Shown here: positions 24,110 to 64,000 of the stretch, in pieces
Numbering within the stretch: the first letter of the stretch is position 1
How the letters are laid out: the number at the start of each line of letters is the position of its first letter
From: an uncultured archaeon
GTDB lineage: Archaea > Aenigmatarchaeota > Aenigmatarchaeia > CG10238-14 > SCSR01
DNA: 64,000 bases
NCBI GenBank assembly: GCA_964646855.1
Contig: CAZYHQ010000001.1
Location: 3,414-67,413, forward strand
Direction of reading: 5' to 3'
Position numbers and translations under genes: made by a program
The notes under the pieces: generated by a model
What the model was told of the DNA's origin: nothing
What the model saw: the letters and a program-made list of their open reading frames with translations, nothing else
Database searches by the model: none

Positions 24110-24645
24110 GTTTTGCAGATTTAGATTTACAAATTTTGAAAATATTCAACCACCCATCATCAATAAACGTAGACATTTTTGTCGTGACTGCGATATTCGC
24201 AGTTTACGTTTTTCTGATTTACCTCGTCTACAACAACTTTAGAAAAAACTACACACCCAAATTCGCACACATAATTCTGGCTTCTATAATCGGCTACGCG
24301 TTTGTCACGGTGCTGAAATACATCGTTGCCAGACCCAGGCCGTACACGGACGCGAGCGTGGACGCCGTTATCACGAAACCTTACGACCCGCACAGTTTTC
24401 CGTCTGGTCACAGTTTCGTCGCCTTTCTGCTGCTGAATTTTCTGCCCGAAAGCTGGCCGAACTATGCAAAATATCTGGCGGCGGCCTACATAGTTTTCAT
24501 TCCTGTAGGATCAATGTACATAGGAGTTCACTACCCTTCGGATGTCTTATTCGGCTCTCTGCTCGGCTTCATTTTTCCGAAAATCCTCTCAGAAAAAATT
24601 TCTTTCAAAATATTTAACAAAATCTCACAGCTGCATCTTCGTTAG
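24106..24645 (+). CDS. PAP2-family phosphatase (phosphatidic acid / polyprenyl-pyrophosphate phosphatase-like) membrane protein
   Basis: PAP2 motifs KYIVARPRP, SFPSGHS and GVHYPSDV, with multiple TM helices. Start uncertain: GTG at 24106 or TTG at 24136. The ORF-track start at 24007 overlaps polB by ~100 nt. Confidence 0.7.
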   Translation: MSFADLDLQILKIFNHPSSINVDIFVVTAIFAVYVFLIYLVYNNFRKNYTPKFAHIILASIIGYAFVTVLKYIVARPRPYTDASVDAVITKPYDPHSFPSGHSFVAFLLLNFLPESWPNYAKYLAAAYIVFIPVGSMYIGVHYPSDVLFGSLLGFIFPKILSEKISFKIFNKISQLHLR

Positions 24646-35179: not shown

Positions 35180-35204
35180 ATAACTTCAGAAACTTCTAAA
35201 ACAC

Positions 35205-46886: not shown

Positions 46887-46890
46887 TATT

Positions 46891-48057: not shown

Positions 48058-49023
48058 ATGTTTATGGGCGAAAAAATTTTAGTTACTGGCGGAGCAGGCT
48101 TCGTTGGCAGCCATATATGCGAACGGCTTGTTGCAGAAGGCAAAGAGATAGTTATAGTCGACAATCTGCATAATTTTTACGATCCTAAAATAAAACTGTC
48201 CAATTTGAAAGGCCTTGCTCAAAACCCAAATGTAACGATTTTGAATGCCGACATTCGCGATGCTAACATTCAATCCGAGCTGAGTAAGTTCGAAATAAGT
48301 TCTGTACTCCATGTCGCGGCTATTGCAGGTGTCAGGCCGTCCATGCTGAATCCTGGGGAGTACATAGACATCAACGTGAAAGGAACGCTGAACATCTTGG
48401 AATTTGCGAGGAAAGCAGATGCAGACAAGTTCATTTTCTCTTCATCTTCATCAGTTTATGGCGATGTCCCCTTATCAGAGTTGCCAGTGGCAGAGACGGT
48501 GGAGCCAAAACCAATCTCACCTTACGCAGCTTCAAAACTCGGAGCCGAGATACTTTGCAACACCTACTTAAAAACATTCGGGCTCGATACAACAATCTTG
48601 CGATACTTTACTGTATACGGCCCTAGGCAAAGGCCGGATGAAGCGATATCAAAATTCACTTCTCTTATTCTGAAAAACCAGCCGATAGAAATTTTCGGCA
48701 ACGGAGAGCAGCAGAGGGATTTCACGTATGTGTCGGATGCAGTCGAAGGAACGCTGCTAGCACTGCGCAGCAAGAACTGCAGCGGCGAAACGATTAACAT
48801 AGCAGGAGGAAAAAGAATTTCTGTCAACGAACTTGTAAAAATAATTTCAAATATCCTAGGCTCACAACCAAGGATAATTTTTTCGGACAAGAAAGCTGGC
48901 GAGGCGTCTAACACGCACGCAGACATATCAAAAGCGGAAAAGATTTTGGGCTACAAACCGAAAGTTAGTATGGAAGAAGGAATTAGGAATTTTGTTCAAT
49001 GGTTCAAGAGTCAGCAGATATAA
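48058..49023 (+). CDS. NAD-dependent nucleotide-sugar 4-epimerase-like SDR
   Basis: [13 protein letters not shown] and YAASKLGAE motifs. 321 aa. Confidence 0.8.
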
Positions 49024-49041
49024 TTTTATTTATGAATTTTT

Positions 49042-50511
49042 ATGAGAGAATTTGAGAAGATAGGTCTTGACAGCCTGTACAATCTTCTTGGGTCAGTTTT
49101 TGTAGCTATCCTGACTTTTTTTATAACCGTAATCATAACAAGAAAGCTGGGTCCTGAGGACTACGGAATATTTTCTTATGCATTTTCTGTTTTTTCCCTG
49201 CTACCGCAATTCTGCTTGCTGAGCCTGAACACAATTTTGTTGAGGGACACTGCGTTTTTCGCTGGCAAGCGCGACCCTTCTGCAATAAAATCTTACTTCC
49301 TTCAGTTCTCAAAAATTGTTTTTCTGACTACCACAGCTATTTCTTTAGGGTTACTCGTGACAATTTTTGCGTTTCCAGGTCTCATTCCATTCTCTAATTT
49401 CCTTGTCATGTTCATCCCGTATCTGTTCATCATAAATTTCTTTACCCTGATTACATCAGGATCTTTGTCGGGACTGAGGAAATTCGGTCTTGTGAATTCT
49501 CTCACAGTTGTGTCTAGAGTATTGCTTCTGTTGTTTGTGCTATTGTTTATTGGCCAAAGGGTTTCAGGCGTGATAGTTTCTTACACGGTCAGCCTTGCAA
49601 TCCCACTTGCGATCTCACTGTTTTTTGTCCACAAAATTATTTTGTCAAAAGTCAAGACCAAGAAAATCAGTATTAATGAAATATTCTCGTTCTCACTGCC
49701 GTTCTTCATTGCGCAGATTCTTTTCGGCGTATTGCTTTATTTCAACATATTTGCTCTGACTTACTTCGCTCCAAAGTTTGGTTTCGATGACGTCGGTTTC
49801 TATTCGCTAGCATTTCACATCGAACTGTTTTTGGAAACTTTGCTGCTGTTTGTAGCAAACTCCGTAACGCCGGCAATTTCCCAGTTCTACGGTGCAAATG
49901 AATTTTCAAGAATCAAAAAAATATTTTCTCTTGGTATGAAGTACACGTTTATTTTTGTATTTCCGATAATGTTTTCGCTTGTGGCTGCAGCAGATGTACT
50001 GATACGCGATGTTTTCACAAAGACCTATTCAGGGTCGACCTTGGTGCTGCAAATACTTGCGTTCACATTGGTAGCCACGATGCTTCTCAGGTACATGCTT
50101 TCTATAATTCTTGCGAAAAAACTTGTCAGATCGTATCTTTACTTGGGAATTATACTGCTTGTAGTTACGGTGCCGTTGACACTGTTCCTTACATCAGAAT
50201 TTTCTGCGATAGGCGCAGCACTTTCAAGGGTCGTACCGCTTGTAGTGCTTACGATAATTTTTACTAAAATCATAGTCAAAAAGGCGCGACTTCAGCTGCC
50301 CTCAAGAGATTTGTTGGCAGAATTTGCCGGCTCGCTAATGTTTCTGCTGTTGTTCTTGGCCCCAAGAAACTTATTCTCTGTAATCGCATACTTTATGGCA
50401 ATTGGTATAGCCTACATTTCCTTCTTGTATTTTGTTAAAGTTCTTAGAGCAAGCGACATCGAAAGGGTAAAAACGTTTTTCAAGCTTCTAATTGATCCGT
50501 CCGCTAGATGA
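49042..50511 (+). CDS. Wzx-like oligosaccharide flippase (MOP/polysaccharide biosynthesis protein family)
   Basis: 489 aa with ~12-14 TM helices and an N-terminal pattern typical of PST-family flippases. Confidence 0.65.
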   Translation: MREFEKIGLDSLYNLLGSVFVAILTFFITVIITRKLGPEDYGIFSYAFSVFSLLPQFCLLSLNTILLRDTAFFAGKRDPSAIKSYFLQFSKIVFLTTTAISLGLLVTIFAFPGLIPFSNFLVMFIPYLFIINFFTLITSGSLSGLRKFGLVNSLTVVSRVLLLLFVLLFIGQRVSGVIVSYTVSLAIPLAISLFFVHKIILSKVKTKKISINEIFSFSLPFFIAQILFGVLLYFNIFALTYFAPKFGFDDVGFYSLAFHIELFLETLLLFVANSVTPAISQFYGANEFSRIKKIFSLGMKYTFIFVFPIMFSLVAAADVLIRDVFTKTYSGSTLVLQILAFTLVATMLLRYMLSIILAKKLVRSYLYLGIILLVVTVPLTLFLTSEFSAIGAALSRVVPLVVLTIIFTKIIVKKARLQLPSRDLLAEFAGSLMFLLLFLAPRNLFSVIAYFMAIGIAYISFLYFVKVLRASDIERVKTFFKLLIDPSAR

Positions 50512-50585
50512 TTGTTCCATCGGTTTTATATATGTTTTTTCCAACAATAACCTATAGAAAAATTTTTTGAATAAAGGTAAACAAA

Positions 50586-51554
50586 ATGAAAAGTTCTCAG
50601 CCCTACGTGTTAGTAACAGGCGGGTCAGGTTTCATAGGCTCACATACCGTTGAAGAACTTTTGTCAATCGGCAAGAACGTAATTATTTTGGATCCGGCCC
50701 CGCCGTTGTTTGCTGACAGAGAATTGGTGAAATCAGGGCGCGTTATTTACAAACACGGAACTAGCTATGATTTACCGCAGATGCTGGACATAGCTAACAA
50801 TTTCGAGCTCGAAGGCATATTCGACATTGGCGGCATACTCGGCACAGAAGAGTTGAGTAAGCGAATAGACAGCGCTATGGCGTTCAACGTAATCGGTTCT
50901 ACAAACACATTGGAACTGGCACGGATGAAAGATTTGAAAATTTTCTTTCCGATGAAAGAAGGCGTGTGGCTCGAAGGATACAGCCTGACAAAGAACACAA
51001 TACTGCACCAATACAAAATCTACAGAAAGATGTACGGGCTGAAAACTGTGGTTTGTGTGTGGTACCATGCGTATGGAGAGAGGCAGGCGGTATTCCCGGT
51101 AAGAAAAGCAGTTCCTACTTTCATAATGCAGGCGCTGTGCGGGGACAATTTTACGATAATGAACGACCCGAAGAACGCGCTTGATTACATATACGTTAAA
51201 GACGTGGGCAAGATAGTTGTTAATTTATTCTATTCGGACAAAACCAATTTCGACGAGGTATACGAAATCGGAAGCGGCAAGTCAATTACTTTGGAGGATC
51301 TCGTGAATCTGATAAAGCGGCTTACAAACAGCAGCAGCAATACAGAACTTATAGAGTATAGAAAGACACTACCAGAGCACCCTTTCGGCACTGCGGATGT
51401 AACAAAATTCGAGAACGTCATCGGCAAGTACGATTTCATGCCTCTGGAAAAAGGCATGAAGTTGACAGTTGACTGGTACAAACAGAATTATTCCATTGAG
51501 CAGCTGAAGAACGCTCTTGCATTGTGGAGACAGAGACAAACATACGGCGTTTGA
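50586..51554 (+). CDS. NAD-dependent epimerase/dehydratase
   Basis: VLVTGGSGFIGSH motif. 322 aa. Confidence 0.7.
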   Translation: MKSSQPYVLVTGGSGFIGSHTVEELLSIGKNVIILDPAPPLFADRELVKSGRVIYKHGTSYDLPQMLDIANNFELEGIFDIGGILGTEELSKRIDSAMAFNVIGSTNTLELARMKDLKIFFPMKEGVWLEGYSLTKNTILHQYKIYRKMYGLKTVVCVWYHAYGERQAVFPVRKAVPTFIMQALCGDNFTIMNDPKNALDYIYVKDVGKIVVNLFYSDKTNFDEVYEIGSGKSITLEDLVNLIKRLTNSSSNTELIEYRKTLPEHPFGTADVTKFENVIGKYDFMPLEKGMKLTVDWYKQNYSIEQLKNALALWRQRQTYGV

Positions 51555-51631
51555 ACAGCAACAGCAACTGCAACGTAGACGATTGTTCCACTTGTTTTAA
51601 ATATTTTTTTCCAGCAATAGTTTTTGAGAAA

Positions 51632-52438
51632 ATGGAAGACATACCAGTAGTTATTCTCTGCGGCGGTAAAGGTTTCAGGCTAAGAGAATTCACCGAAACA
51701 ATGCCCAAAGCCTTGGTGCCGATAGGGAACATGCCGATACTGTTACACGTGATGAAACTTTACGCGCACCACGGCTACAGAAGATTCATCCTGTCTTTAG
51801 GATACAAAGGCAACGAAATCAAACAGTACTTCATGAACCATGATTGGATGTCAAACGATTTTTTACTCAAGATGGGTCCGGCAAAAGAAGTAAGACACCT
51901 GTCCAGCAACTTGCACGATTTTGAAATAACCTTTGTTGACACAGGATTGGAAACAAATACTGGCGGGAGAGTTAAAAAAATAGAGAAACACATCGACACG
52001 GAAAATTTCATGGCAACATACTGCGACGGCGTGGCAAACATAGACTTGAACTCGCTTTTGGGATTCCATAAAAATATGGGCAGGATAGCAACTCTTACAG
52101 GCGTGCATCCTATAACATCTTTCGGTTTCATAGAAACTGAAAACGGAATAGCAAAATCATTCAGGGAGAAGCCGGCGCTCCCCGGCTTGGTCAACGGCGG
52201 ATTCTTCGTCTTCAACAAAAAAATTTTCGAATTCCTCGAAGAGGACAGCATCTTGGAAGACAAACCGCTGAGAACTTTGGCCTCAGCAGGGCAGCTTGCA
52301 GTTTACGAGCATAAAGATTTTTGGGCTTGCATGGATACTTTCAAAGATGTCGAGCGACTGAACGGTATTTGGGACACAGGGTACATGCCGCTCGGCTATT
52401 ACCAATTCAAAAAAGCTCCTTGGAAAATCTGGGAATAA
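51632..52438 (+). CDS. rfbF: glucose-1-phosphate cytidylyltransferase
   Basis: Close to the RfbF signature (VVILCGGKGFRLREFTETMPKALVPIGNMPILLHVMKLYAHHGYRRFILSLGYKGNEIKQYF). Start at the ATG at 51632. Confidence 0.85.
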   Translation: MEDIPVVILCGGKGFRLREFTETMPKALVPIGNMPILLHVMKLYAHHGYRRFILSLGYKGNEIKQYFMNHDWMSNDFLLKMGPAKEVRHLSSNLHDFEITFVDTGLETNTGGRVKKIEKHIDTENFMATYCDGVANIDLNSLLGFHKNMGRIATLTGVHPITSFGFIETENGIAKSFREKPALPGLVNGGFFVFNKKIFEFLEEDSILEDKPLRTLASAGQLAVYEHKDFWACMDTFKDVERLNGIWDTGYMPLGYYQFKKAPWKIWE

Positions 52439-52442
52439 TTCC

Positions 52443-53447
52443 ATGTCAGATAATTTTTGGCCAGACAAAAGAGTTTTGATAACTGGTGCAACAGGTTTCA
52501 TTGGCTCATGGCTGACTGAAGATTTGATTTCTAAAGGAGCGAGTGTTTCAGTTTTTGTAAAAAAGGATTCATTCGGAACCGACGCAGTCAAGCATTTAGA
52601 ATCCAAACTGAAAACTTTTCATGGAGATATAACTCAGAAGGACACGATAAAACCGGCAATAAGCGATCAAGAAATTATTTTTCACCTTGCAGCATACAGT
52701 CAGGTCCTGCATTCAATTGAAAATCCCAGTGAAGCATTTTTAGTGAACGCAACCGGTACTTTGAACTTGCTTGAAGAAGTGCGGAAAAACAATTCGAATT
52801 CTATTTTCGTTTTTGCTAGTACAGACAAAGTTTACGGCGAGCCGAAATACCTGCCGATTGATGAGCAGCACACTTTAAGCGCAAAATCTCCCTATGACGC
52901 ATCCAAACTAGCAGCAGACCGGTTGACATATTCTTACTATACTTCTTACGGCATGAATTGCACAATTTCCCGCTGGTCGAATACAATTGGCGGGCGAGAC
53001 GCAAACATTTTACGCGCGGTTCCAGATTTTGTAACAAGCCTACTGAATAACAGACCACCAACAATAAGAAGAACAGGGGAAGACGTTCGTGATTACATGT
53101 ATGTGACCGACGCGATTCGTGGAATCGAACTCCTTGCACAAGAAATTAATTTGACGAAAGGCCAAGCGTTTAATCTTGGAACAGAGAAACCGATTAAGCT
53201 AATAGAATTGTGCAAATTAATTTTGAAAACAATGGGACACGAAAATAAATTCCAGCCAACAATTTTAGGAAAACAAATTCCTGGGGAAATTGATAAACAG
53301 CATTTGTCTGCTAAAAAATCCATGGAAGTTACGAAATGGAGTCCTGAAGTAACATTAGAGGAAGGAATAAGGAAATCAATCGAGTGGTATTCACAGAACA
53401 GATGGTGGGAAGAAGTAATGAAGAGAGTGGCTAACGCCCGCACCTAA
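52443..53447 (+). CDS. rfbG: CDP-glucose 4,6-dehydratase
   Basis: N-terminal FWPDKRVLITGATGFIGSWL and YDASK, typical of RfbG/DdhB. 334 aa. Confidence 0.8.
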   Translation: MSDNFWPDKRVLITGATGFIGSWLTEDLISKGASVSVFVKKDSFGTDAVKHLESKLKTFHGDITQKDTIKPAISDQEIIFHLAAYSQVLHSIENPSEAFLVNATGTLNLLEEVRKNNSNSIFVFASTDKVYGEPKYLPIDEQHTLSAKSPYDASKLAADRLTYSYYTSYGMNCTISRWSNTIGGRDANILRAVPDFVTSLLNNRPPTIRRTGEDVRDYMYVTDAIRGIELLAQEINLTKGQAFNLGTEKPIKLIELCKLILKTMGHENKFQPTILGKQIPGEIDKQHLSAKKSMEVTKWSPEVTLEEGIRKSIEWYSQNRWWEEVMKRVANART

Positions 53448-54739
53448 ACAATTCTCGGCCCCGGTATAGGGATAATAAATTTTCCACCAATGTCTTTGTA
53501 TTTTTGTTGCTGCCTCATTACTTCGTCAGCAAAATTCCAAGCAAGTATAAACATATAGTCAGGTTTGTCTTCCAAAATTTTTTCTACCGGAACAACTGGA
53601 ATGTGCATACCAGGCGTAAGCAATCCATGTTTCAGCGGGTTTTTGTCTGCTATGTAATCCAATAACTTTGTGTCGATACCAAAGAAATTAAGCAGTGTGT
53701 TGCCCTTTGCTGGCGCGCCGTACCCGATTATATTTTTGCCTTCTGATCTCAATTTTTTTAGCAACGAAATCAAATTTTCTTTCAGCCTTTTTATTCTATC
53801 TGCAAATTCCAGATAAGTTTCAAATTTGTCAAGTTCCATTTCTTCCTCCAACTTCAGCAATTCACCAACAGCAGCTGTAGTTTTCAAGTTTGATGATTTC
53901 TTTTTTACGTAAATCCTTATCGTGCCGCCATGAATTGGAAAACGCTTTACGTCGAAAATTTCCATGTCAAAGCTTTTGAAAAGTTCTGTCAAAGGTCTGA
54001 TTGCAAAATAGGAAAGGTGTTCATGGTAAGCAGTATCGAACTCGTTGTTTTGTATCATGTCAACAAGGTATGGCACCTCGATGACAAACGCACCATCATC
54101 CTCAAGCAAAACACTGACTCCTGCCAACAAATCGTAGGAATCGTTTATGTGCGCTACTACATTGGTCGCGGTTATAATCTTTGCTTTGCTTTTTTCTTTT
54201 ACTATTTTCTCTGCAGTGGCTGAATTGAAAAAATCGTTCACAGTTTCTATCCCGGATTTTCTTGCGATTTCTGCGATGTTAGTTGCAGGTTCGACGCCAA
54301 GAGTTCTTATACCAACCTTTTTGAAACCCTTCAGTAATGTCCCGTCATTGCTCCCTATGTCAACAACAAGCGAATTCTCGCCAGCGCCAACAATCTTTGT
54401 GGACTCGTCAGCAAGCTGCTGAAAATGCACAGGAACTGCGTCAGACGTTCCAGATACCCACAGATAACTTTTGAACATCAATTCCGGGGGTACAACATAA
54501 TCCAGCTGCACTAAACCACAATTGTTGCAGAAAACTAAGTTTAGTGGGTAGGTTGGTTCTGGTTTTTTCAAGTCTTCTTTCCTCAAAAAACTGTTTGCCA
54601 AAGGCTGATTACCAAGTTCCAAAAATTTTTTTAGTTCAGCGTTTTTGCAAATCCTACAATTGGTTACCTGCATGTCATCACTTGTAGACTTTAGATACAA
54701 CGGATTTAAATTTTGTGTACTCTTATTTCCATCATGCAA
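53444..54739 (-). CDS. NDP-hexose C-methyltransferase (TylCIII-like; zinc-ribbon + SAM MTase + C-terminal C-MT domain)
   Basis: N-terminal CRICKNAELKKFLELGNQPLANSF Zn-binding motif, SAM motif VVDIGSNDGTLL, and the characteristic C-terminal domain. 431 aa. Confidence 0.8.
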   Translation of the reverse strand: MHDGNKSTQNLNPLYLKSTSDDMQVTNCRICKNAELKKFLELGNQPLANSFLRKEDLKKPEPTYPLNLVFCNNCGLVQLDYVVPPELMFKSYLWVSGTSDAVPVHFQQLADESTKIVGAGENSLVVDIGSNDGTLLKGFKKVGIRTLGVEPATNIAEIARKSGIETVNDFFNSATAEKIVKEKSKAKIITATNVVAHINDSYDLLAGVSVLLEDDGAFVIEVPYLVDMIQNNEFDTAYHEHLSYFAIRPLTELFKSFDMEIFDVKRFPIHGGTIRIYVKKKSSNLKTTAAVGELLKLEEEMELDKFETYLEFADRIKRLKENLISLLKKLRSEGKNIIGYGAPAKGNTLLNFFGIDTKLLDYIADKNPLKHGLLTPGMHIPVVPVEKILEDKPDYMFILAWNFADEVMRQQQKYKDIGGKFIIPIPGPRIV

Positions 54740-55618
54740 ATACTTGTTACCGGCGGAACAGGAGTAATTGGTTACAAGCTAGTGAAATATTTCGTTGATA
54801 ACGGCGAGAATGCCAGCTACACATATCTTTCACATGAAACCGAAATCAAAAGTGCAATTGGCCACAAACTTGATATAACAGACACGCAAGCAGTTCTTGA
54901 TTTGATAAATAAAATCAAGCCAAACGTCGTTGTACATACTGCGGCATTGACAAAGGTTGACTTGTGCGAAACAAATCACAAACTTGCGGATGCGATGAAT
55001 ATAGAAGGCACAAGAAACATAGTTGAAGCTTGCAAAGCTACCGGCAGCAAAATAGTGTTGGTTTCTACTTCAGCTGTATTCGACGGCAAAAAATCTGTTT
55101 ACTACGAGGACGACGAAGTCAACCCTCAATATTATTATGCTTTCACCAAAGCAGAAGCAGAAAAAATTGTAAAAACTTCTGGCTTAGAATTTCTGATTCT
55201 TCGAACAGACCAACCTTACTGCTGGACAGAGAAGTGGCAGCATGACAACTCAGTTCTGCGAGTGATTAACAAACTGAAGGCAGGAAAGGTTATGAAAGAC
55301 GTTGCTGACTGGTATAACAACCCAACCCTTGTTGACAATTTTGTTGAAGTTGCATTCGCTTTGATCAAGAAAAATCAAACTGGAATCTATCACGTTTGCG
55401 GTTCTGATTATTTGAACCGTTATGAAATGGCACTGAAAGTTGCGGAAGTTTTTGGATTAAATAAAGATTTAGTTCAGTCGATGAAGTCAATAGAACTTAG
55501 CCTGCCAGCAAAAAGAGTTAATGTGAATTTGAATAATGAAAAGGCTCAGAAAGATTCTGGGGTCAAACTGCTAAATTTTGAAGAAGGACTAAACTCAATG
55601 AAAGTAAAAATTGCTTAA
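54734..55618 (+). CDS. RmlD-like NAD(P)H-dependent nucleotide-sugar 4-ketoreductase
   Basis: ILVTGGTGVIGYKL Rossmann motif and YAFTKAEAEK catalytic region. ~295 aa, the size of dTDP-4-dehydrorhamnose reductases. Confidence 0.6.
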   Translation: MQILVTGGTGVIGYKLVKYFVDNGENASYTYLSHETEIKSAIGHKLDITDTQAVLDLINKIKPNVVVHTAALTKVDLCETNHKLADAMNIEGTRNIVEACKATGSKIVLVSTSAVFDGKKSVYYEDDEVNPQYYYAFTKAEAEKIVKTSGLEFLILRTDQPYCWTEKWQHDNSVLRVINKLKAGKVMKDVADWYNNPTLVDNFVEVAFALIKKNQTGIYHVCGSDYLNRYEMALKVAEVFGLNKDLVQSMKSIELSLPAKRVNVNLNNEKAQKDSGVKLLNFEEGLNSMKVKIA

Positions 55619-57813
55619 TTTGAAACAACTGTCTGAAATGTATCATTGTAGGAAGTCTGATTGACAGTTATGTTTGGTGTGTAGATTGCATTGGTTGTAT
55701 AATCAGTCTCAATTATTACGAAAACTTTTTCCGAGTTGTTAAGCGAAGTGGTCTGCGTCGAGTGTATGTTTGATTGGCCGGTATTGAACAACCATGAAAA
55801 TATCTGGCTACCCAAGTTATTGACTATCTCAAAGACCTGAACTGTGCTGTCTTTGTTTTCCTTCAGCACAAGACCGCCCAACACTTCTATCATGTTCACT
55901 TGGAATTTGTCTGCAAAGCTGTTGTTGAAAGTTCCGTTATATGCTTGAACAGCTGGTGTTCTTTTGCCCTGCGCGCTGTAGTTTACTTCTACTGTAAAGT
56001 TTGTAGTTTCTCTCGGCGCAAGAGTTACCGAAGTGTTGCTAGTTACACCTGCATCAGAAATACGCCAATTTATGTTGGAAACATTGTAAGGCCAGTAGTT
56101 TGTTATGTTAAACCTGAAGACTCTTATGTTTGTTTCATTTTTCTTGTAGCTTTCAAAGTTTTCAATTCTTATTGCGTTGAGAACAAATGATTCGTTAAAG
56201 CGATCTGAAATGGCCCCAGAGACTATTGTAACATTAACATCTTTGTTACCGTCAGTAGTGTAGTTTATACTTTGCGTTACTGTGCTTGATGCATCGGTTC
56301 CCAAGCTGCCTGTGCTTCCAGAAAACAGCTGGTCATCGCTTCTTATGTTATAAGTTACCGTCAATGCCGACCAATAATTCTTGATGTTGAACTGCATGTT
56401 TCTATTGTTTTCTCCAACAGAACTTGTGTTGTAATCTTCAATTTTTGTTCCTTTTAGTTCAAACTTTACAAACTTTGTATCGTTTCCTTCGGGTGAAGTT
56501 ACGTTGCAATTTAGGTATTTTGCTCCGGGCGAACCGTATGTTCTGTTGAGGTATTCGGTTCTCCTGCCGAAAGCTGATACAGAAAACGAACTGTTTGACT
56601 TGGCACCGTTATCGCAAGCCCAGTCCATGTTGCTTACAGTAGAATTCAGGCCGTTGAGTATTGTCATGTTGAAATTTGCCTTGTCTCCATTCTGGCTGAT
56701 GAATGATAGCGACCCTATGGTAATTCCAAACTTGTTTGTAATGTTTTCGAAATCATAAGAACCAGGATTAGACCGTGCCGTCACATTTACTTTGTAACTT
56801 CCGCCAGATGAGTAATTATGTTCGACTATAACTAACACTGATTCGTTGGTCGATACATTAAATGCATTTGTAGAAATAATCTGATTGCCGTCTCCAAAAT
56901 CTGCAGTCCAGTTTACATCTGTAATTGTAGAATTCTTTTCGTTTGCAAGATAAAACTGGAAAGTTCTGTTTCTGTCAGCAGAATAAAGATTTTCTTGTCT
57001 GCTAACATCTACGCCAGCATCCACCGTTACTATCTGCGACGGCGCGTGCACAGGGTAACTGCCGTAAACGAATTTTGTTGTATTGGCACTGTCTCTCACT
57101 ATTTTCAGAATGTTGCCTATCGGATTGTATGAGTATAACCAAGTGTTGCCTGCGATAGAAACATTTACCAGCCTGTCCAGAAAGTCATAAGCCATTCTGT
57201 AAGTTCGATTGTTTGCGGTGTCATTAATCAGGACAATGTTGCCCACAGAATCATACGTGTAATTAATATTTTGAATCGCACCAGTTTTTATTTGCTGCAA
57301 TCTTGAATTTGTTTCATTGTAAGTCTGTTCAGTAATCCTGGTATTTGCATAAGTCCTGTTCAGCATTTTGTCGAACGCATCGTAGAAAGTATTGGTTATG
57401 TAGTTAGTAATCTTGTTTACCTTGCTCTGGTTGTTGTAGTAGTATTCTATTTCTTGTCCTGTTAAATTTATTTCAAGTACTCTATCCATAGAGTCATAGA
57501 CATATCTTTTCTCAAATTGTATACCATCGATAATCCTGATTTCCGTTATCAGTCTCAGTTTGTCATTGTATTCGTACTTTACTGTGTCATTGCCGAATGT
57601 AACGTTTGTCAGAGTTCCTTGGTGTTGCTCGTCGTAAGTGTAGTTTATGCTAATGCCTGTAGAATTTTTAGTTACAATTCTGTTTAACGCATCGTAAGTT
57701 ATGTTCACTTGGTTCGTCGGATTGTCGTAAGTTAAATCTTGTGTGGCAGCAATCGCCAACTGCGGGATTAATGCAAAAACGATCATTGCAAATAAAAACA
57801 ATTTAGTCTTCAT
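55615..57813 (-). CDS. secreted YD-repeat protein with Ig/PKD-like domains, extremely rich in N-x-S/T sequons
   Basis: Signal peptide MKTKLFLFAMIVFALIPQLAIAA. N-terminal YD repeats (YTYDALNRIV, YTYDEQHQG, YEYNDKLRL, YVYDSMDRV, YTYDSVGNI), then beta-rich repeats with more than 40 N-x-S/T sites. Start at the ATG at 57813. Confidence 0.7.
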   Translation of the reverse strand: MKTKLFLFAMIVFALIPQLAIAATQDLTYDNPTNQVNITYDALNRIVTKNSTGISINYTYDEQHQGTLTNVTFGNDTVKYEYNDKLRLITEIRIIDGIQFEKRYVYDSMDRVLEINLTGQEIEYYYNNQSKVNKITNYITNTFYDAFDKMLNRTYANTRITEQTYNETNSRLQQIKTGAIQNINYTYDSVGNIVLINDTANNRTYRMAYDFLDRLVNVSIAGNTWLYSYNPIGNILKIVRDSANTTKFVYGSYPVHAPSQIVTVDAGVDVSRQENLYSADRNRTFQFYLANEKNSTITDVNWTADFGDGNQIISTNAFNVSTNESVLVIVEHNYSSGGSYKVNVTARSNPGSYDFENITNKFGITIGSLSFISQNGDKANFNMTILNGLNSTVSNMDWACDNGAKSNSSFSVSAFGRRTEYLNRTYGSPGAKYLNCNVTSPEGNDTKFVKFELKGTKIEDYNTSSVGENNRNMQFNIKNYWSALTVTYNIRSDDQLFSGSTGSLGTDASSTVTQSINYTTDGNKDVNVTIVSGAISDRFNESFVLNAIRIENFESYKKNETNIRVFRFNITNYWPYNVSNINWRISDAGVTSNTSVTLAPRETTNFTVEVNYSAQGKRTPAVQAYNGTFNNSFADKFQVNMIEVLGGLVLKENKDSTVQVFEIVNNLGSQIFSWLFNTGQSNIHSTQTTSLNNSEKVFVIIETDYTTNAIYTPNITVNQTSYNDTFQTVVSN

Positions 57814-58027
57814 AGAAACCTCCTGAGACAATTCTCATCAGCTCTTTGAACGGAGTGTAAATTTTCGTGCTGGCAGAATCGTTGCGAGAAATCTCTGACA
57901 GTCTTAACGAAAGAATTCGGAAATTATTTTTGGAAAATATTTTTATTTCAGCTAGATAATTTTGATTGTCCTTTGTTAATTTTTTTACTATAATTATTTT
58001 ATTTTCTAAAAGCGACTCTTGTTTCAT
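57803..58027 (-). pseudogene. orphan ORF carrying a fragment of the RHS core (…RNDSASTKIYTPFKELMRIV…)
   Basis: The 74-aa ORF has a C-terminal half that duplicates 20 aa found in the large RHS protein. Confidence 0.35.
57836..57883. repeat. 48-bp direct repeat (46/48 identical to 59607-59654) derived from the RHS core-coding region
   Basis: catcagctctttgaacgg[a/c]gtgtaaattttcgtgctggc[a/t]gaatcgtt. Encodes ...STKIYTPFKELMRIV... on the minus strand in both copies. Confidence 0.85.
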
Positions 58028-58590
58028 TGTTCAGAAACCTCCCTTGTTTGGTTAAGAACAATAGTTTTACCAGTGTCAGGATCACATACTAAGAAGTCTT
58101 TGTTTTGATTGTACCAACCTTTCCAAGCATTAAGAATCTGGTCTTGGTTAGTTTCGTTGACAGAGCCAAGATATACACCGGTAATTGCATTAAGTATAAC
58201 GTTTATAGTTTTTCCAACAGTGTTCTTGCCTATAACACCGTATTCTTCAAAAGATCCTCTAGGGAGAATTATCAACGCATTGCTACTATCTGTTCGGTTA
58301 AGATTATCTATCAGAATTGGTATTGAATTATCAGAAAGTAAAATCAATTCCGCAACACTCCTGTAAGATAGAGCAGCATCATAAGATGTTATATCGTCAA
58401 TACGTTTCTGAATTTCTTCTTTTGAGAGGCTGTAACTACAAGATGGCGTCGATTCGTAGAAATCTCGTACGTCTCTTAATGTTTGTTCGTCTACAGTACT
58501 TTTTTCTATCAAAAACAAAATAATTACAAGAAAAATAGCTACAAGAGTTACAAAAACAAATTTTATGTTTAAATAATTCCTAATTCTCAA
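58024..58590 (-). CDS. small membrane-anchored protein, candidate cognate immunity/partner of the RHS metallopeptidase toxin
   Basis: 188 aa with an N-terminal signal anchor. Its (TTG) start overlaps the RHS stop in a TTGA arrangement, so translation is coupled. Confidence 0.5.
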   Translation of the reverse strand: MRIRNYLNIKFVFVTLVAIFLVIILFLIEKSTVDEQTLRDVRDFYESTPSCSYSLSKEEIQKRIDDITSYDAALSYRSVAELILLSDNSIPILIDNLNRTDSSNALIILPRGSFEEYGVIGKNTVGKTINVILNAITGVYLGSVNETNQDQILNAWKGWYNQNKDFLVCDPDTGKTIVLNQTREVSEQ

Positions 58591-61500
58591 TTAAGATCAC
58601 TTTGTGTTCTTGGTTCAATGAGATGAGTCTCTTTTCCAGTCAGCCAAGTATCAATAAAAGGATCTAGTGGTCTAAACCACCATCTGACCGCACCAACAAA
58701 ACTGGTCCATGTATCTTTAGGTTCGTCTTTAAAATACGGATCAATGATTGCATTTGTGTTTTCTTGTTTTGCGTGGTAAAATTTTCCCGGGTTCATAATG
58801 TTCTCTGCATCAAGGCGGTCGTCCAAACCAAAGAAATGACCGACCTCATGTACGTATTGCTCTCGATCTGTAGTCCATTCACCAGTCCTACCATAGTTAT
58901 TATCTAATGGAAGATTACCAAAAGGAACGATAGATTTATCTCTCTTAGAAATACTAAAGATTTCTACGGCATTCTCATACAAGGGTATGTAATCAGGCTT
59001 ACTACTTACATATGCAACCTTAACATCAAATCTTACATTATAAGTCTGCCCCCCGCTTTGATAAGTAAATCCTTGATTCCAAACGAAATTTATATCTTCT
59101 TCCATTTGCTTTGCAAGATCTGCATTAGCAGCATCACCATAAATGTAGATTGTGGTGCTAACCACGATTTCTTTATTTTCGTCGTCAATTACAAGTTTTG
59201 CATCTCTTCCTGTCGGGTCGATATATTTTATCGGATTGTTTAACGAATATGAAAATCTATTCAAACTCTGGGAATTATATATATTTGGTACATTTACATC
59301 AGGTTGATGCCATCTGCCTATACACGGATTGTAATATCTGGCACCATAATAAAATTGACAACTAGAATCTTTGAATTGCCCAGTGTATAGTTTATTTTCA
59401 GCACTTCCCCCACCCAGCAACTCCCCGAACGGACTATAGAACGTGTTCTCAACAACATTCCCATTCTGATTTGTTATTAAACTAGTGCTTCCCAAATGAT
59501 CCGGATGATAGTAATATTTCGAGCCGTCTGGATTGACACGTGCGACTAAAGTACCGTCTTGGTAAATGTAAGTGAAGTCAAATGTTCCGCTGCTATTAAC
59601 TATCCGCATCAGCTCTTTGAACGGCGTGTAAATTTTCGTGCTGGCTGAATCGTTTCTCTCGATTTTTATGCGGATACCAAACGGATCGTATGTGTAATTT
59701 TCGATAATTGGTGAACTGACAGTAGAGCCATTGCGAATTATTATCAACTGATTTAGCGCGTCATACTCGCGATAAAATCCGTCACCAGTTACTAAATTGC
59801 CACCACCCTGTTGCTGCTGGCGAATTAAATTTCCAGCAAGATTGTAAGTGTAAGTCCAGTTGCCGAGATCAGGATCGATCAATGCGGTGCGCCTGCCGAG
59901 TGAATCGTAAGTAAAACTAAAAATGTTTCCTAACGAATCAGTAATTTTTACGAGATTATCACTAGTGTCGTACTCATAGCTAGTATTGTAAATGTCTGAC
60001 TCGAAATTCCAGCCGAGAACAGGATCGTTATTGTATTCGAGAACATTTTTAATACGATCGTATGTATCAAGAACGTAAGCCTTGCGATGTCCATTTTCAT
60101 CGTATGCTGTAATCGTGCGATGGTCGAAATTAATTGTCTTGTTGCTGCTATCCGGATTCAAAACAAAATTAACTCTGCCTAGAGTATCGTAAGTGTAATT
60201 AGTAGCATTAACAGTTGAAGAAGGAGTTGACAATGAAACAGAAAACGTATCGAAATATGGATTGCTCTCAGAAATAACTCTGCCCAATCCGTCATAATAA
60301 AAGTTTTTGACAATCTGCCTGTTGTTGTCTGCCGGACGCTTTAGCTGAATGAAGTTTCCAAATCCATCATAGTAAAAATATGTATCTGAAGTTTTGTTCG
60401 CTGAAGTTCGCTGTGAAATCTTAATATATTCAGGAGTATTACCATCGAAAAAGTAAGTGTAATTCTTAGTAGGCAACTCGTATGAATCAAACGGTTGCAC
60501 TTCCTTAATTATTCTGCCGAAAATGTCGTAGTAGAAATAATTAGTGATTTCGTTCTGCTTCTGCCAAATCAGATTGCCGGTACCAATGTCATAAGCGTAA
60601 TCAGCAGTGTGGAACAAAGCATTAGTGATTCTGTCTGGGTAAGTGAACGTAGTGTCGCGCAACCCGTATGTGTAAGTCGTCTCAGCACCGAGCGGATTGG
60701 TCTCGCGGATTACATTGCCGAGAGAATCGTATGCAAACTTTGTCTTTTGATTGCCTCCAGTATCCAGCCAGTTGTCTATTTCTGTCAAGTCTCCGCGAAT
60801 GGGAGCAGCAGAGTAAGGAAGATTATCGTAAGAATATTTTGTCTCTATAACCTTTGTAGAGTTGTCAGAAGCAAACAGCAAGTACCAGCTAAGTCTGTCA
60901 ACAATCCAGCCAGAAGTGTTTAATGCGTATGCATACCGCTCGTATTTTTCATCGCCGCTGATGTTAACATCGCCGAAGAAATTTCTGTGCAAAACATTTC
61001 CATAACTGTCGTAAACGTAAGAAACATTTGTGATGTTTGGTGCAATCGGTGAACCGTCGTAGAAATAATTTGTCTGAGACAGCAGGAAAGTTTTGTGATA
61101 CAGATTGCCTCCAACGGAGATGTTTGTATAATTAAAGAAATTTTCAGCGCGAGAAAACAAACTGCGGGAAGAATTGTAAATTTCAGTTTTGTATTCCTTG
61201 CCTTTGCGGGCATCGTCTTGATGGAAATAATGGACAATTAAACTTTTGTCAGGAAGAGTTTCGTTTGTCAAGGCAAACCCGCGGAATTCGGAATTGTCGT
61301 AATCGTAACTTCCGCCGGAGTAGTTGTATGTATAGTTTGCAATTACAGCAAACCTGCCGGGCATCGAGTTGTTTTGCAAAACATTCCGTACGACCCAAAT
61401 ATTGAATCCTAAATCGGACAGCGAGTCGTTGCCTGTGTTGTTGAATTGAGTTGACTTGTTGTACTGGACAGAAACGGAGTCTATTGTAATTGTCCCGCCG

Positions 61501-63575
61501 TATTCAGTTGTTATCTTTTTCAGCAGGAATGGAGTGGTAATGTTTTTCTCCCATGTCCAGAACTGGGTAGTAGTCTCGTTCTTGTAGGCTACCACAAGGT
61601 CTGCAAACCCGTCGCCATTGACATCAGCAAGCCTCCTGCCTTTATTCTGGCCATGACTCAGAAGAATTTCATTTACATTCCAAGAGTCATTTTGCAACCA
61701 GCCAGTGCCGTTGTTTATCCAAACATGTTTTTCTGTATTTGTGCTGTTTTCCATCCCAACCACAAGGTCTACCAACCCATCCCCGTTTATTTCCAAAAGT
61801 CTGAGACCTGTATCGCCATTATCTACAAAGTTCATCGGAATATCATTCCAAACAGAGGAATTTTCCCAACCATTGCCGTTATTCAGCCAAGCACGTTTCG
61901 TCTGACCACCGCCCCATTCTCTGTAGGATTCGATTATATCTGGAAGACCGTCGCCATTGACGTCTTCAACTCTTACTCCCTTGTCTGTGTTGCCATCCAT
62001 GAAGTAAGTCGGCGGCAGCCAAGTTGCGGTCGCGTCTGTCCAACCTTTTCCTGTGTTCAGCCATGCCGATTTGTTTTTTGGGCTCTCGAAAGTGTTTTCC
62101 CTAGACATCAAAATGTCCACTCTGCCGTCTCCGTTGAAGTCGGTGAACAGCACACCGAAATCAGGGATTCCCGTAGAACTTCTAACAAAATCTATGGGTG
62201 GCTTCCAGATGCTAGATACATCAATCCATCCGTTGCCGTTGTTCATCCACGCTTTTCTCTCTGAAGGGTAAGTCGCATCGGCACGAAGTATGTCAACAAA
62301 CCCGTCGCCGTTGAAATCCACAAGCCTGAAACCGTAATCTTCCTGCAGAGGACCGAGGAACTCAATCGGCGGAGCCCATACAGAACTCGCGTCAGTCCAA
62401 TTGTTCGCACCGTTGTTGAGCCAAGCCTTTTTTGCAATATTGCCGCCACTGAAGTCCCTGCCCTGTATCATATCGACGTAACCGTCCCTGTTCAGATCCA
62501 CCAGACGCACGCCATCATCTTCAATGGTGTCTGAAAACTCGACTGGTGCAATCCAGACTGTCGTGCGGTTTCTGTAACCAATCTCTGGATAATGATATGC
62601 AAAGGAAACTTGGTGCAGCAAAGATGTACCATCTGAACCAAAATATTTTATTTTTGCAAGCGAGAACGACGACTGTTCCGCGCTCAAATTTGCATATTCG
62701 AATCTGTAATTTCTTACGGCCAACCCGTTAGCCCAAACGACTATCTCCGAAAGTCTCCTGCTTTGGTTTACGTAATGACCCTGTTCGATTACCAACCTTC
62801 TAGCGCCTGTAGCCTCGTAACTGAAATCTACCTGCCTCTGTTGGTCGTTGTTGTAGACAATCTGCGAAGGATAAGTAACATTCCTGTCTTCTGGATTCGA
62901 GTTTTCAAGATACGAGTAAATTATCTTGTTGTCGTGAGTGTCCTTGACTTCGTCCAAGTACCAGCGGAGCGAATAGTTTCTTGCCACAGTAGACTCCAAC
63001 TCGGAATCATTGTTGTAACCAAACCTGTATCGCATGCCGTCTTTCGTTGTGACAACCCAATAAACGCTGTTGTTATTTGGAGCGCCTGTCAGGTTTTGTA
63101 CTTTCAAAAACGATTCCATTTTTGTGTGGTAAAGACCATCAGATGAGTCGTAAACCAAATCGTAAGAAGCATCGTTGAAAATTAATTTGAATTCGTCGTC
63201 GCTAACATTGCTGGGAGTGGAGTTTACGTCTCTGTATACGTAGTTCTGTGTGATTGACCAACCGGAACCCAGCAAACCGCTTTGTTTTGCAGACTGGCTG
63301 TTATAGGACAGTGCAACCGACGGTTGCAGACCGTTCGTGCCAGACGGCGTTTCAATTGAATACGTATAAGTCGCCGCACCTGGGAACAAATTAGTTGCGT
63401 AACTTCCGTACAATTTTAATTTCGGATGCTCGGGAATCTGCGGTTCATGCAGGTAGGGTTTGTAAGGATCTGCGGCTGATGCATGTTGCACATTAAAAAG
63501 GAAAATCGTGAAAAATAAAATTGCGAAAACAACCTCGAAATTTTTTTGGGGTAAAATTTTCTGAATAAATTTCAC
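58587..63575 (-). CDS. Tc-toxin/teneurin-like RHS-repeat polymorphic toxin with C-terminal zinc-metallopeptidase domain
   Basis: Signal peptide (…FNVQHASA-ADP); six FG-GAP/VCBS-like motifs (DLNRDGYVDM, DFNGDGFVDIL, DFNGDGRVDIL, DVNGDGLPDII, INGDGLVDLV, DVNGDGFADLV); many YD repeats; RHS core (YYHPDHLGSTSL...YTGQ...YYGARYYNPCIGRWHQPD...YIDPTGR); then a ~230-aa tip with HEVGHFFGLDD (HExxHxxGxxD). Confidence 0.85.
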   Translation of the reverse strand: MKFIQKILPQKNFEVVFAILFFTIFLFNVQHASAADPYKPYLHEPQIPEHPKLKLYGSYATNLFPGAATYTYSIETPSGTNGLQPSVALSYNSQSAKQSGLLGSGWSITQNYVYRDVNSTPSNVSDDEFKLIFNDASYDLVYDSSDGLYHTKMESFLKVQNLTGAPNNNSVYWVVTTKDGMRYRFGYNNDSELESTVARNYSLRWYLDEVKDTHDNKIIYSYLENSNPEDRNVTYPSQIVYNNDQQRQVDFSYEATGARRLVIEQGHYVNQSRRLSEIVVWANGLAVRNYRFEYANLSAEQSSFSLAKIKYFGSDGTSLLHQVSFAYHYPEIGYRNRTTVWIAPVEFSDTIEDDGVRLVDLNRDGYVDMIQGRDFSGGNIAKKAWLNNGANNWTDASSVWAPPIEFLGPLQEDYGFRLVDFNGDGFVDILRADATYPSERKAWMNNGNGWIDVSSIWKPPIDFVRSSTGIPDFGVLFTDFNGDGRVDILMSRENTFESPKNKSAWLNTGKGWTDATATWLPPTYFMDGNTDKGVRVEDVNGDGLPDIIESYREWGGGQTKRAWLNNGNGWENSSVWNDIPMNFVDNGDTGLRLLEINGDGLVDLVVGMENSTNTEKHVWINNGTGWLQNDSWNVNEILLSHGQNKGRRLADVNGDGFADLVVAYKNETTTQFWTWEKNITTPFLLKKITTEYGGTITIDSVSVQYNKSTQFNNTGNDSLSDLGFNIWVVRNVLQNNSMPGRFAVIANYTYNYSGGSYDYDNSEFRGFALTNETLPDKSLIVHYFHQDDARKGKEYKTEIYNSSRSLFSRAENFFNYTNISVGGNLYHKTFLLSQTNYFYDGSPIAPNITNVSYVYDSYGNVLHRNFFGDVNISGDEKYERYAYALNTSGWIVDRLSWYLLFASDNSTKVIETKYSYDNLPYSAAPIRGDLTEIDNWLDTGGNQKTKFAYDSLGNVIRETNPLGAETTYTYGLRDTTFTYPDRITNALFHTADYAYDIGTGNLIWQKQNEITNYFYYDIFGRIIKEVQPFDSYELPTKNYTYFFDGNTPEYIKISQRTSANKTSDTYFYYDGFGNFIQLKRPADNNRQIVKNFYYDGLGRVISESNPYFDTFSVSLSTPSSTVNATNYTYDTLGRVNFVLNPDSSNKTINFDHRTITAYDENGHRKAYVLDTYDRIKNVLEYNNDPVLGWNFESDIYNTSYEYDTSDNLVKITDSLGNIFSFTYDSLGRRTALIDPDLGNWTYTYNLAGNLIRQQQQGGGNLVTGDGFYREYDALNQLIIIRNGSTVSSPIIENYTYDPFGIRIKIERNDSASTKIYTPFKELMRIVNSSGTFDFTYIYQDGTLVARVNPDGSKYYYHPDHLGSTSLITNQNGNVVENTFYSPFGELLGGGSAENKLYTGQFKDSSCQFYYGARYYNPCIGRWHQPDVNVPNIYNSQSLNRFSYSLNNPIKYIDPTGRDAKLVIDDENKEIVVSTTIYIYGDAANADLAKQMEEDINFVWNQGFTYQSGGQTYNVRFDVKVAYVSSKPDYIPLYENAVEIFSISKRDKSIVPFGNLPLDNNYGRTGEWTTDREQYVHEVGHFFGLDDRLDAENIMNPGKFYHAKQENTNAIIDPYFKDEPKDTWTSFVGAVRWWFRPLDPFIDTWLTGKETHLIEPRTQSDLN
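59607..59654. repeat. 48-bp direct repeat, copy inside the RHS gene (partner of 57836-57883)
   Basis: See the partner repeat. Confidence 0.85.
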
Positions 63576-63579: not shown

Positions 63580-64000
63580 CTAAGAAATTCTTGTAGCGTT
63601 TATGAAATTTTGGACTTGAGTCGTGGTTTCAGCAGAAGTTAGGTTCGTCATTTCTAAAACATACAGTGAAGTGCTTATGTTTGGTATACTTGTTAGCGCA
63701 TCGCTGCCGGTTAAGTAGTTAAATGCCCAGTACTGAGCTCCGTATTTAGTGACTTCATCGAACCTTCCTAACTTTTGGAAATTGGAGGCATTGCGTACAT
63801 AGATTTGCTGATCTGTGAATATTGGAGCAGTGCTGCCAAGAACATTTCTAATTCCGGTGTTAATTGCATTTCTTGCATCCGCTTCACTGGTATTTGGTGT
63901 ATTATTTAGATCGCCTGCCCCCCAAGAATAAGTAGGTTCTGGTATTGTAAAATTCCTTACTGCGAACCAGTCTAAAACATATCTTCCGCTCGGACCAGTT
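63580..64000 (-). CDS. 3' end of a further secreted-looking, sequon-rich protein that runs off the window edge
   Basis: Manual translation of minus frame 63583-63999 gives 139 codons without a stop (…SGRYVLDWFAVRNFTIPEPTYSWGAGDLNNTPNTSEADARNAINTGIRNVLGSTAPIFTDQQIYVRNASNFQKLGRFDEVTKYGAQYWAFNYLTGSDALTSIPNISTSLYVLEMTNLTSAETTTQVQNFINATRIS*). Stop TAG is 4 nt upstream of the RHS start. Confidence 0.4.
   Translation of the reverse strand, partial: TGPSGRYVLDWFAVRNFTIPEPTYSWGAGDLNNTPNTSEADARNAINTGIRNVLGSTAPIFTDQQIYVRNASNFQKLGRFDEVTKYGAQYWAFNYLTGSDALTSIPNISTSLYVLEMTNLTSAETTTQVQNFINATRIS

Follow-up and report, generated by a model that had tools for sequence, protein, structure and literature searches.

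This report concerns a window of 64,000 nucleotides from an uncultured archaeon (contig CAZYHQ010000001.1; "the window" refers throughout to this whole stretch of DNA), and in particular the gene at 58587–63575, which encodes a secreted, TcB/TcC-like fused RHS cocoon protein of 1662 amino acids with a toxin tip, as identified from the list of open reading frames (ORFs) and from Pfam and NCBIfam domains. All of the locus features described below are on the minus strand. The gene starts with GTG and its reading frame is intact through all 1662 codons, exactly where it had been placed by the original prediction, a note written from the DNA letters and the ORF list; an identical 1662-residue protein from a 134-kb contig is on record at NCBI. 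Behind the gene are an ORF of 188 codons (58024–58590) that is a candidate immunity gene, a remnant ORF of 74 codons (57803–58027), and a gene for a secreted protein of 732 residues (55615–57813).

The N-terminal 34 residues (63474–63575), read by eye from the translation, form a predicted Sec signal peptide, with a charged n-region and a hydrophobic stretch VVFAILFFTIFLF followed by ASA/ADP, giving an N-terminus that ends in FAILFFTIFLFNVQHASA/ADP. Residues 66–248 (62832–63380) correspond to the SpvB or TcB N-terminal domain (PF03534, E = 5.3e-10), and this region has a weak match in the PDB to SpvB (6p0x). An FG-GAP β-propeller of about six blades occupies residues ~350–670 (61566–62528; PF13517, FG-GAP_3, E = 2e-21; PF01839, FG-GAP, E = 3e-15). 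The motif DxNxDGxxD occurs five times in exact form, at residues 360, 420, 479, 538 and 651, and once as the variant EINGDGLVD near residue 596; five exact copies and one variant at a spacing of approximately 59 residues argue for a six-bladed propeller, and a PDB search with the N-terminal 800 residues matched the TcdB1 propeller 6l7i_F (E = 1e-5). The TcdB_toxin_midN domain spans residues 647–778 (61242–61637; PF12256, E = 7.3e-21). It is followed by a shell of tyrosine-aspartate (YD) or RHS repeats at residues ~780–1379 (59439–61238; PF05593, RHS_repeat, E = 1.1e-17; TIGR01643, E = 1.6e-14), which matches in the PDB the Rhs shell 8h8a (E = 2.7e-24), the teneurin-like structure 9pt5 (E = 1e-18) and also YenC2.

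The protein therefore has the YD repeats that build the shell of RHS polymorphic toxins as well as the TcB elements of Tc toxins, namely the SpvB N-terminal domain, the propeller gate and the TcdB mid domain. The original prediction had described an RHS/YD protein of TcB/TcC- or teneurin-like architecture, and every structural element that it named was recovered by profiles or by fold evidence. Its mention of dozens of YD repeats was loose: residues 781–1400 contain about 35 Y[DNESTH] dipeptides but only 8 strict xYxYDxxG motifs.

The shell closes with the Rhs-associated core, consisting of the plug and a predicted aspartyl autoprotease, at residues 1380–1456 (59208–59438; TIGR03696, E = 1.4e-16). 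The core ends in NNPIKYIDPTG, of the form PxxxxDPxG, with residue 1456 as its last residue, and cleavage is predicted directly after it. In an alignment with TcdB2-TccC3, GRWHQPDV in our protein falls on GRWLSSDP, and YIDPTG falls on LLDPDG. Since QPDV and IDPTG are aligned with SSDP and LDPDG of TccC3, both autoprotease aspartates are present, as D1426 and D1453. This pair comprises the residues that are needed for self-cleavage in Tc toxins. The conserved core with a DPxG-like end (YIDPTGR), as noted originally, is thus borne out both by the profile match and by the aligned aspartates.

The toxin tip, residues 1458–1662 (58590–59204), has a molecular weight of approximately 23.8 kDa and a pI of 4.6. 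It was first estimated at some 230 residues; with the core ending at residue 1456, its actual length is 205–206. The sequence HEVGHFFGLDD at residues 1576–1586 (58818–58850), identified in family alignments as the zinc-binding and catalytic motif, conforms to the metzincin signature HExxHxxGxx(H/D), with H1576, E1577, H1580, G1583 and D1586 as predicted active-site residues. The signature is followed by a Met-turn methionine, M1594 in the sequence ENIM (M137 in tip numbering; 58794–58796).

With the tip alone as query, an exhaustive phmmer search identified relatives at E ≤ 1e-3 in 104 cluster representatives (lowest E = 1e-16), so the match is well above chance. The word-indexed search of 5.8 billion clustered proteins returned no relatives of the tip. 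The 104 relatives match tip residues 1 to ~140 and are located at the C-termini of proteins 118–2142 residues long. In family alignments of 37 and of 96 sequences, the H, E and H of the motif are invariant, the G and the downstream Met (consensus G-N-I-M) are kept in at least 90% of sequences, and the final position is D in most of the family members listed. The consensus of the 96 sequences reads ARxYDxxxxRxxxxDP...NNPxxxxDPxG-DAxxxI...IYIYG...HEFGHLLGLxD...GNIM. It includes the end of the RHS core, which lies directly ahead of the tip in most relatives, and the tip domain is therefore habitually cargo behind an RHS core. We note that a Pfam scan of the 96 sequences identified an eCIS_core domain (formerly DUF4157) in two of them, so that contractile injection systems, and not RHS cocoons alone, apparently carry the tip domain as cargo.

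The tip-family profile matched only metzincins in the PDB, with snapalysin at the top (E = 1e-3, HETGHVLGLPDHY) and the tip motif aligned with HETGHVLGLPD of snapalysin. The AlphaFold2 model of the tip, which used the family alignment as input, has a predicted local distance difference test score (pLDDT) of 84.8 and a predicted template modeling score (pTM) of 0.83; the active-site helix is confident, and the C-terminal helical part is of low confidence at tip residues 164–177. Foldseek matched this model to fragilysin (E = 1e-4, TM score ~0.42). Searched by itself, the tip reached the cutoff of no family in Pfam or NCBIfam and produced just motif-level matches to zincins, and a single-sequence search of the PDB gave only a chance match. 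The 96 family sequences produced scattered sub-threshold matches in Pfam to reprolysin, matrixin, M6, M7 and M66, none of which claims the family. The Tox-MPTase models in Pfam were matched neither by our tip at E ≤ 10 nor by the 96 family members at E ≤ 0.01; to our knowledge, Pfam has no model for Tox-MPTase1.

We conclude that the tip is a metzincin-clan domain with an intact HExxHxxGxxD site and a Met-turn, and it is predicted on this basis to be an active protease. The metallopeptidase fold of the HExxH region is confirmed by the confident model, by the Foldseek match to fragilysin and by the comparison of the family profile with the PDB. The original label, metzincin/snapalysin-like, stands for clan and motif, but not for the snapalysin family itself (MEROPS M7, Pfam PF02031), membership of which is not supported, as there is no significant match to the family profile.

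The 188-codon ORF was identified from the ORF list and the DNA, and is also called as a gene at NCBI. Its TTG start codon overlaps the TGA stop codon of the toxin gene, and its product has an N-terminal transmembrane anchor in the form of a hydrophobic helix. Among 5.8 billion proteins it has a single homologue, P0231, which is 51% identical and is encoded on a 1-kb contig (L002); no homologues were found in JGI metagenome contigs. P0231 keeps the anchor as well as the cysteines C51 and C169, which fits an extracytoplasmic domain for the 188-residue protein. The reading frame ahead of P0231 on L002 ends with GWEKNIMAE...NAIIDPYVKG...TGKPTYNIAPRARSDLA and a stop codon, and is homologous to the C-terminus of our tip (42% identity, E = 1e-16). 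The frame after P0231 encodes a signal peptide followed by TQDLTYDSPTNQ, the start of a YD/PKD gene. P0231 thus lies directly behind a homologous tip, so that tip and partner are co-inherited in the only other case available.

We also scanned GTDB genomes for tip loci, using motifs derived from a 7-sequence alignment that exclude the variant present in our protein. The scan identified 24 tip-family loci (L003–L026), all of them bacterial, in Jacksonbacteria, Saccharibacteria, Bacteroidota, Acidobacteriota and Gammaproteobacteria; because the motifs exclude the variant in our protein, the all-bacterial result is biased and is silent about archaea. In approximately 19 of the 24 loci, the next gene is a small ORF of ~120–160 codons, often overlapping the toxin stop codon, and these ORFs carry a signal peptide, a lipobox or a transmembrane anchor. 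They belong to at least four unrelated families, the largest of which has six members (five from Bacteroidota genomes and one from an Arenicellales metagenome-assembled genome, MAG), and have no similarity to the 188-residue protein. We consider them candidate periplasmic immunity proteins for this tip family. If the partners are exported, the site of action of the protease would be extracytoplasmic.

A second contig allows the locus to be compared with a close relative. L001 is an independent, syntenic contig of 404 kb, and its RHS protein (P0002) is 80% identical to ours up to the DPxG motif and unrelated afterwards. At the DNA level (blastn), identity between the two is 76% over window 63972–59233, which reaches from the upstream gene to codon ~1447 of the RHS gene; there is no similarity over 59232–57893, and identity is 72% from 57892 to 51570. 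The variable cassette that these blastn limits and the base composition define (57893–59232) comprises the end of the core, the tip, the immunity candidate and most of the remnant ORF; the corresponding segment of L001 contains a different tip, an unrelated ORF of 141 codons and part of an ORF of 273 codons. The cassette has a guanine-plus-cytosine (GC) content of 0.346, compared with 0.407 ± 0.028 in windows of the same size, which places it at the 3rd percentile, and the shell has a GC content of 0.426. Among the matches listed, 41 core-bearing relatives carry tips that fall into 27 mutually unrelated clusters, and our tip is a singleton among the shell relatives. The C-terminal tip therefore varies between close relatives, as seen in the tip of P0002, in the 27 tips of the 41 relatives and in the break in DNA similarity, which falls exactly where the core ends.

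On these sequence comparisons, we conclude that the core–tip–immunity end has been exchanged by recombination and that the shell is resident. The original prediction held that the base composition resembles the rest of the window and took this to argue against a recent insertion from a distant source. That remains correct for the shell, but fails for the cargo, because the tip–immunity cassette, precisely the stretch that is replaced in L001, is AT-rich; the cargo looks exchanged.

One alternative tip recurs among the archaeal RHS proteins (P0006, P0018, P0021, P0022 and P0025). It is rich in glycine, with GxxxG-like runs, and to the eye looks like the glycine-zipper toxins that insert into membranes; the Pfam lists for these five proteins contain no toxin-domain family, and no dedicated profile search of these tips was made.

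The 74-codon ORF (57803–58027) behind the immunity candidate is a decayed copy of the shell segment ahead of the core (~residues 1252–1326), as indicated by a direct repeat and by BLASTP matches to P0001, P0002 and P0003. The repeat is 56 nucleotides long, at 57828–57883 and, within the RHS gene, at 59599–59654, and is 91% identical; it encodes RNDSASTKIYTPFKELMRIV, residues 1307–1326, and the rest of the ORF is a decayed copy of residues ~1252–1306. The last 20 codons are thus nearly intact and the part upstream of them is decayed, with the repeat lying immediately ahead of the start of the 732-residue protein gene. Gene conversion, a recombination boundary or a role in the 5′ control of the following gene may account for the conservation of this piece. 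In the same place, L001 has the 273-codon ORF, a longer copy of RHS residues ~1140–1322 (550 nucleotides at 75% identity). By analogy with bacterial Rhs loci, such partial duplicates may be what recombinational replacement of a cassette leaves behind.

The gene that follows (55615–57813) encodes a secreted protein of 732 residues with YD repeats and PKD-like domains (Pfam RHS_repeat and PKD), and its exact product is on record. It has its own GGAGG sequence, ATG start codon and signal peptide. A separate YD/PKD gene with the same three features is also present in L001 (16123–18327) and L002 (~850–1005). In BLASTP searches, residues 36–736 of the listed ORF are 31–40% identical to the C-termini of about 30 toxin-less relatives of the shell, and the protein is the counterpart of the C-terminal ~690 residues in toxin-less relatives that are ~1900 residues long. 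The simplest reading of these alignments is that a scaffold gene was split when it acquired the core–tip–immunity module; the reverse event, a gene fusion in the ~1900-residue relatives, would be the alternative.

The genomic surroundings are archaeal. Profiles identified four informational genes typical of archaea in the window, namely fibrillarin (E = 2e-85), Nop5 with an archaeal N-terminal domain, a helicase with archaeal domain 4, and a family-B polymerase (PolB), which confirms the archaeal setting described from the translations alone. The full-length shell homologues that carry names are nearly all labeled "Candidatus Woesearchaeota archaeon" or "Nanoarchaeota archaeon", and because of these names we describe the host as probably a DPANN archaeon of Woesearchaeota-like type; a few have bacterial names (Poribacteria, Ignavibacteria, Ryanbacteria). 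The original comment that RHS toxins are little characterised in archaea remains correct as regards experiment, according to PMC8416519, but the shells themselves are not unusual, being common in MAGs of Woesearchaeota and Nanoarchaeota.

Those bacterial names, together with a tip family that the GTDB scan found otherwise only in bacterial genomes, could be taken to mean that a bacterial contig, or a mis-assembled one, has entered an archaeal bin. We regard this as barely credible. Fibrillarin, Nop5, the archaeal helicase and PolB lie within the same 64-kb window, the GC content of the shell matches that of the window, and the scan was biased by motifs that exclude the variant in our protein. 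Furthermore, the window and L001, which is a separate contig of 404 kb, share a gene order (DUF2341, RHS, small ORF, shell fragment, YD/PKD, RmlD, C-methyltransferase, epimerase, nucleotidyltransferase, flippase); within the limits of the data, this excludes that the locus was mis-assembled locally. Bacterial contamination of the contig was therefore dismissed on the archaeal marker genes and the conserved synteny.

Taken together, we propose that a DPANN-type (Woesearchaeota-like) archaeon here encodes a polymorphic RHS toxin, a reading to which we assign a probability of roughly 0.65. By comparison with the biology of Tc BC and Rhs proteins, the 1662-residue protein would be exported by the Sec pathway and its core would cleave itself after YIDPTG (residue 1456). 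The acidic protease of ~24 kDa would then be free within the cocoon but enclosed by it until release at a target cell, where it may cut an envelope or surface protein outside the cytoplasm. The membrane-anchored protein of 188 residues, whose translation is coupled to that of the toxin, would shield the producer, most simply as an extracytoplasmic inhibitor.

Several observations weigh against this proposal. For the immunity candidate, there is no match to a Pfam or NCBIfam family or to any known Imm family, and its AlphaFold2 model (pLDDT 57) is too poor to use. Its linkage to the tip has been seen at two loci of related organisms, and could therefore be plain synteny. Ahead of the Met-turn, most family members carry a GWxG stretch that is absent from our tip. 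No candidate for a TcA injector, nor any other delivery machine, was found in the 64-kb window or in the 25 kb around the L001 locus. Finally, about half of the best shell homologues, ~1900 residues long, are colinear with our protein to residue ~1280, have neither core nor toxin, and have PKD-like ends; so many relatives of this kind suggest that the shell may be mainly a surface or adhesion scaffold.

The missing GWxG stretch, a deletion relative to the family, bears on the further idea that the tip is decayed or non-catalytic and the gene a relic, as do the singleton status of the tip among shell relatives and the decayed shell fragment downstream. A relic would hardly be expected to retain an ORF intact over 1662 codons, with the catalytic and zinc-binding positions and the Met-turn all kept, a structure model that is confident across the active-site helix, and a partner ORF that is itself intact and conserved, and we therefore consider this very unlikely.

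The many close relatives without core or toxin, with their adhesion-type PKD-like ends, would fit a device for interaction with, or feeding on, a host in place of a competitive toxin. On this view, an episymbiotic DPANN cell would display a teneurin-like surface scaffold and use its protease on proteins of the host's S-layer or envelope, reshaping or digesting them so that the cell can attach or take up nutrients, and the 188-residue protein would keep the producer's surface from being attacked. Such a device would also suit a locus found within a cell-surface glycan island next to a surface-type DUF2341 protein, an immunity candidate predicted to face outward, and the common description of DPANN archaea as symbionts or possible predators (PMC9723730). 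It is harder to reconcile with the 27 unrelated tips of the 41 relatives and the exchange of cassettes with a linked small gene, which together are the signature of a toxin–immunity arms race and not of conserved, housekeeping attachment; some of the sister tips also look by eye like pore formers or nucleases. We consider a host-interaction device unlikely, while giving it more weight than the other alternatives discussed here.

The TcB elements raise a different alternative, in which the protein is the BC component of a three-part Tc toxin with a eukaryotic target and with TcA encoded elsewhere in the genome. The SpvB domain, the FG-GAP propeller and TcdB_toxin_midN are the elements of TcB that dock onto TcA, and the core aligns best with TcdB2-TccC3. 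The original prediction had suggested looking for a TcA-like partner; the search described above found none, the only ORFs of more than 900 codons in the window being PolB and the RHS gene itself, with none near the L001 locus. DPANN genomes are small, and bacteria have a recognised class of RHS proteins of the fused BC type that lack TcA, that of "TcdB/TcaC" trafficking (PMC3482391). A dedicated immunity-like gene, moreover, argues for a target that is shared by the producer. A three-part toxin therefore seems highly improbable, and we retain a polymorphic RHS toxin as the preferred interpretation of the locus.

The remaining genes of the neighborhood are as follows. Ahead of the RHS gene is the 3′ end of a DUF2341-type gene that runs off the window (63580–64000), identified from its translation and from its counterpart in L001. 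The latter encodes 627 residues (8045–9928; Pfam DUF2341, E = 3.6e-6), and its DNA homology reaches into the copy in the window. The stop codon of the DUF2341-type gene is 4 nucleotides ahead of the start of the RHS gene. The DUF2341 protein or the 732-residue YD/PKD protein could conceivably take part in the function of the toxin. On the other side, a surface-glycan island adjoins the toxin locus (45849–55618), with its order kept in L001; it includes several NAD-dependent epimerases/dehydratases, a GT4 glycosyltransferase, a Wzx-like flippase, a nucleotidyltransferase, a C-methyltransferase and RmlD. Two PMT_2-type glycosyltransferases are encoded at 33383–36572. The family-B polymerase gene is flanked by ORFs of 395 codons (20227–21414, plus strand) and 537 codons (24625–26238, minus strand), neither of which has a Pfam match at E ≤ 1e-5. 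A scan of the DNA for sigma-70 promoters and terminators gave results at the level of shuffled sequence, and the sigma-70 model is not applicable to an archaeon.

RHS polymorphic toxins, including a "TcdB/TcaC" class and RHS-linked zincin tips (Tox-MPTase1–5), were catalogued for bacteria in 2012, in a survey where archaea figure under other kinds of toxin (PMC3482391). According to a 2021 paper (PMC8416519), work from 2019 predicted polymorphic toxin systems in many archaea, and these are still without experimental characterisation; a 2026 preprint describes RHS and YD features around homologues of halocin C8 and cites the 2019 archaeal study. For DPANN archaea, PMC9723730 discusses pore-forming toxins and peptidoglycan hydrolases only, and our full-text searches found, among the papers covered, none that ties DPANN or Woesearchaeota to RHS or Tc-like proteins. 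The novelty of the locus is limited, and consists of a DPANN-type archaeal member whose tip family is not modeled in Pfam, of the association of this tip family with exported partners, and of the split-scaffold layout. A known bacterial system is extended to another lineage, and no new principle is established.

The locus is nevertheless useful as a compact, testable case, with a secreted cocoon, a predicted protease whose catalytic residues are clear, and a candidate extracellular immunity protein, in a field where archaeal antagonism and self/non-self systems are almost wholly predictions and the cell biology of DPANN archaea is little known. The same tip family circulates among bacteria of the candidate phyla radiation (CPR), Bacteroidota, Acidobacteriota and Gammaproteobacteria and in a DPANN archaeon, and its pairing with a small exported partner in most loci points to a target in the envelope. 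If the protease and its inhibitor were to behave as predicted, they would provide a first handle on DPANN targets and on the release of cargo from a BC-type cocoon without TcA. More speculatively, a surface YD/PKD scaffold present throughout the lineage of Woesearchaeota-type DPANN archaea may have been turned, by core–tip–immunity cassettes that inserted into the ancestral gene and split it, into a TcA-independent toxin carrier that delivers envelope-acting enzymes across the surface of host or rival cells, with the metzincin drawn from a bacterial toxin pool. We think this decidedly unlikely, more so than the host-interaction device; were it true, a self-sufficient, scaffold-derived carrier would represent a delivery route for RHS cargo that has not been described in any domain of life.

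Among known systems, the closest in architecture are the Tc BC subunits of Photorhabdus (TcdB2-TccC3) and Yersinia (YenB-YenC2), which share with our protein the SpvB domain, the FG-GAP propeller, the TcdB mid domain, the YD cocoon and, ahead of a variable cargo, the Rhs core with its pair of catalytic aspartates. Unlike these, the archaeal protein joins both subunits in one polypeptide, carries a predicted Sec signal peptide, comes from an archaeal host and has no TcA in view. The cargoes also differ: here it is a predicted protease with a linked immunity-like gene, whereas the Tc BC cargo is a eukaryote-directed enzyme without immunity.

In the organization of the locus, the resemblance is to bacterial toxins of the Rhs/WapA type with orphan cassettes, in which there is likewise a conserved shell, an exchange of the tip and the next gene at the DPxG end of the core, a remnant shell fragment downstream, and many unrelated tips. 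In contrast to them, our locus has no PAAR, VgrG or type VI secretion system elements, the N-terminal part of the protein is TcB-like, and the remnant has no alternative core–tip and abuts a separately expressed YD/PKD gene.

The tip itself shares with Tox-MPTase1–5 (PMC3482391) a small zincin HExxH domain in last position after RHS repeats and the "TcdB/TcaC" trafficking class. It differs in that its family matches none of the Tox-MPTase models in Pfam and has the metzincin extension HExxHxxGLxD and a Met-turn. In the table of 2012 (PMC3482391), the Tox-MPTases are entered without an immunity partner, whereas members of our tip family usually have an exported ORF downstream. The adamalysin/ADAM proteins, fragilysin and snapalysin (M7) are 10–18% identical to our tip, and no Pfam metzincin family reaches cutoff. 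Unlike these metzincins, the tip has no prodomain, possibly because enclosure in the cocoon would take over that role.

Finally, teneurins and bacterial teneurin-like proteins (PDB 9pt5 and 9ifo) share the YD shell, the propeller and a core-like plug with our protein (residues 1162–1458, E = 1e-18). Teneurins act as adhesion receptors that span the membrane and do not release their C-terminal domain as a protease, whereas the archaeal protein, to judge from its sequence, combines the two autoprotease aspartates with an enzyme cargo.

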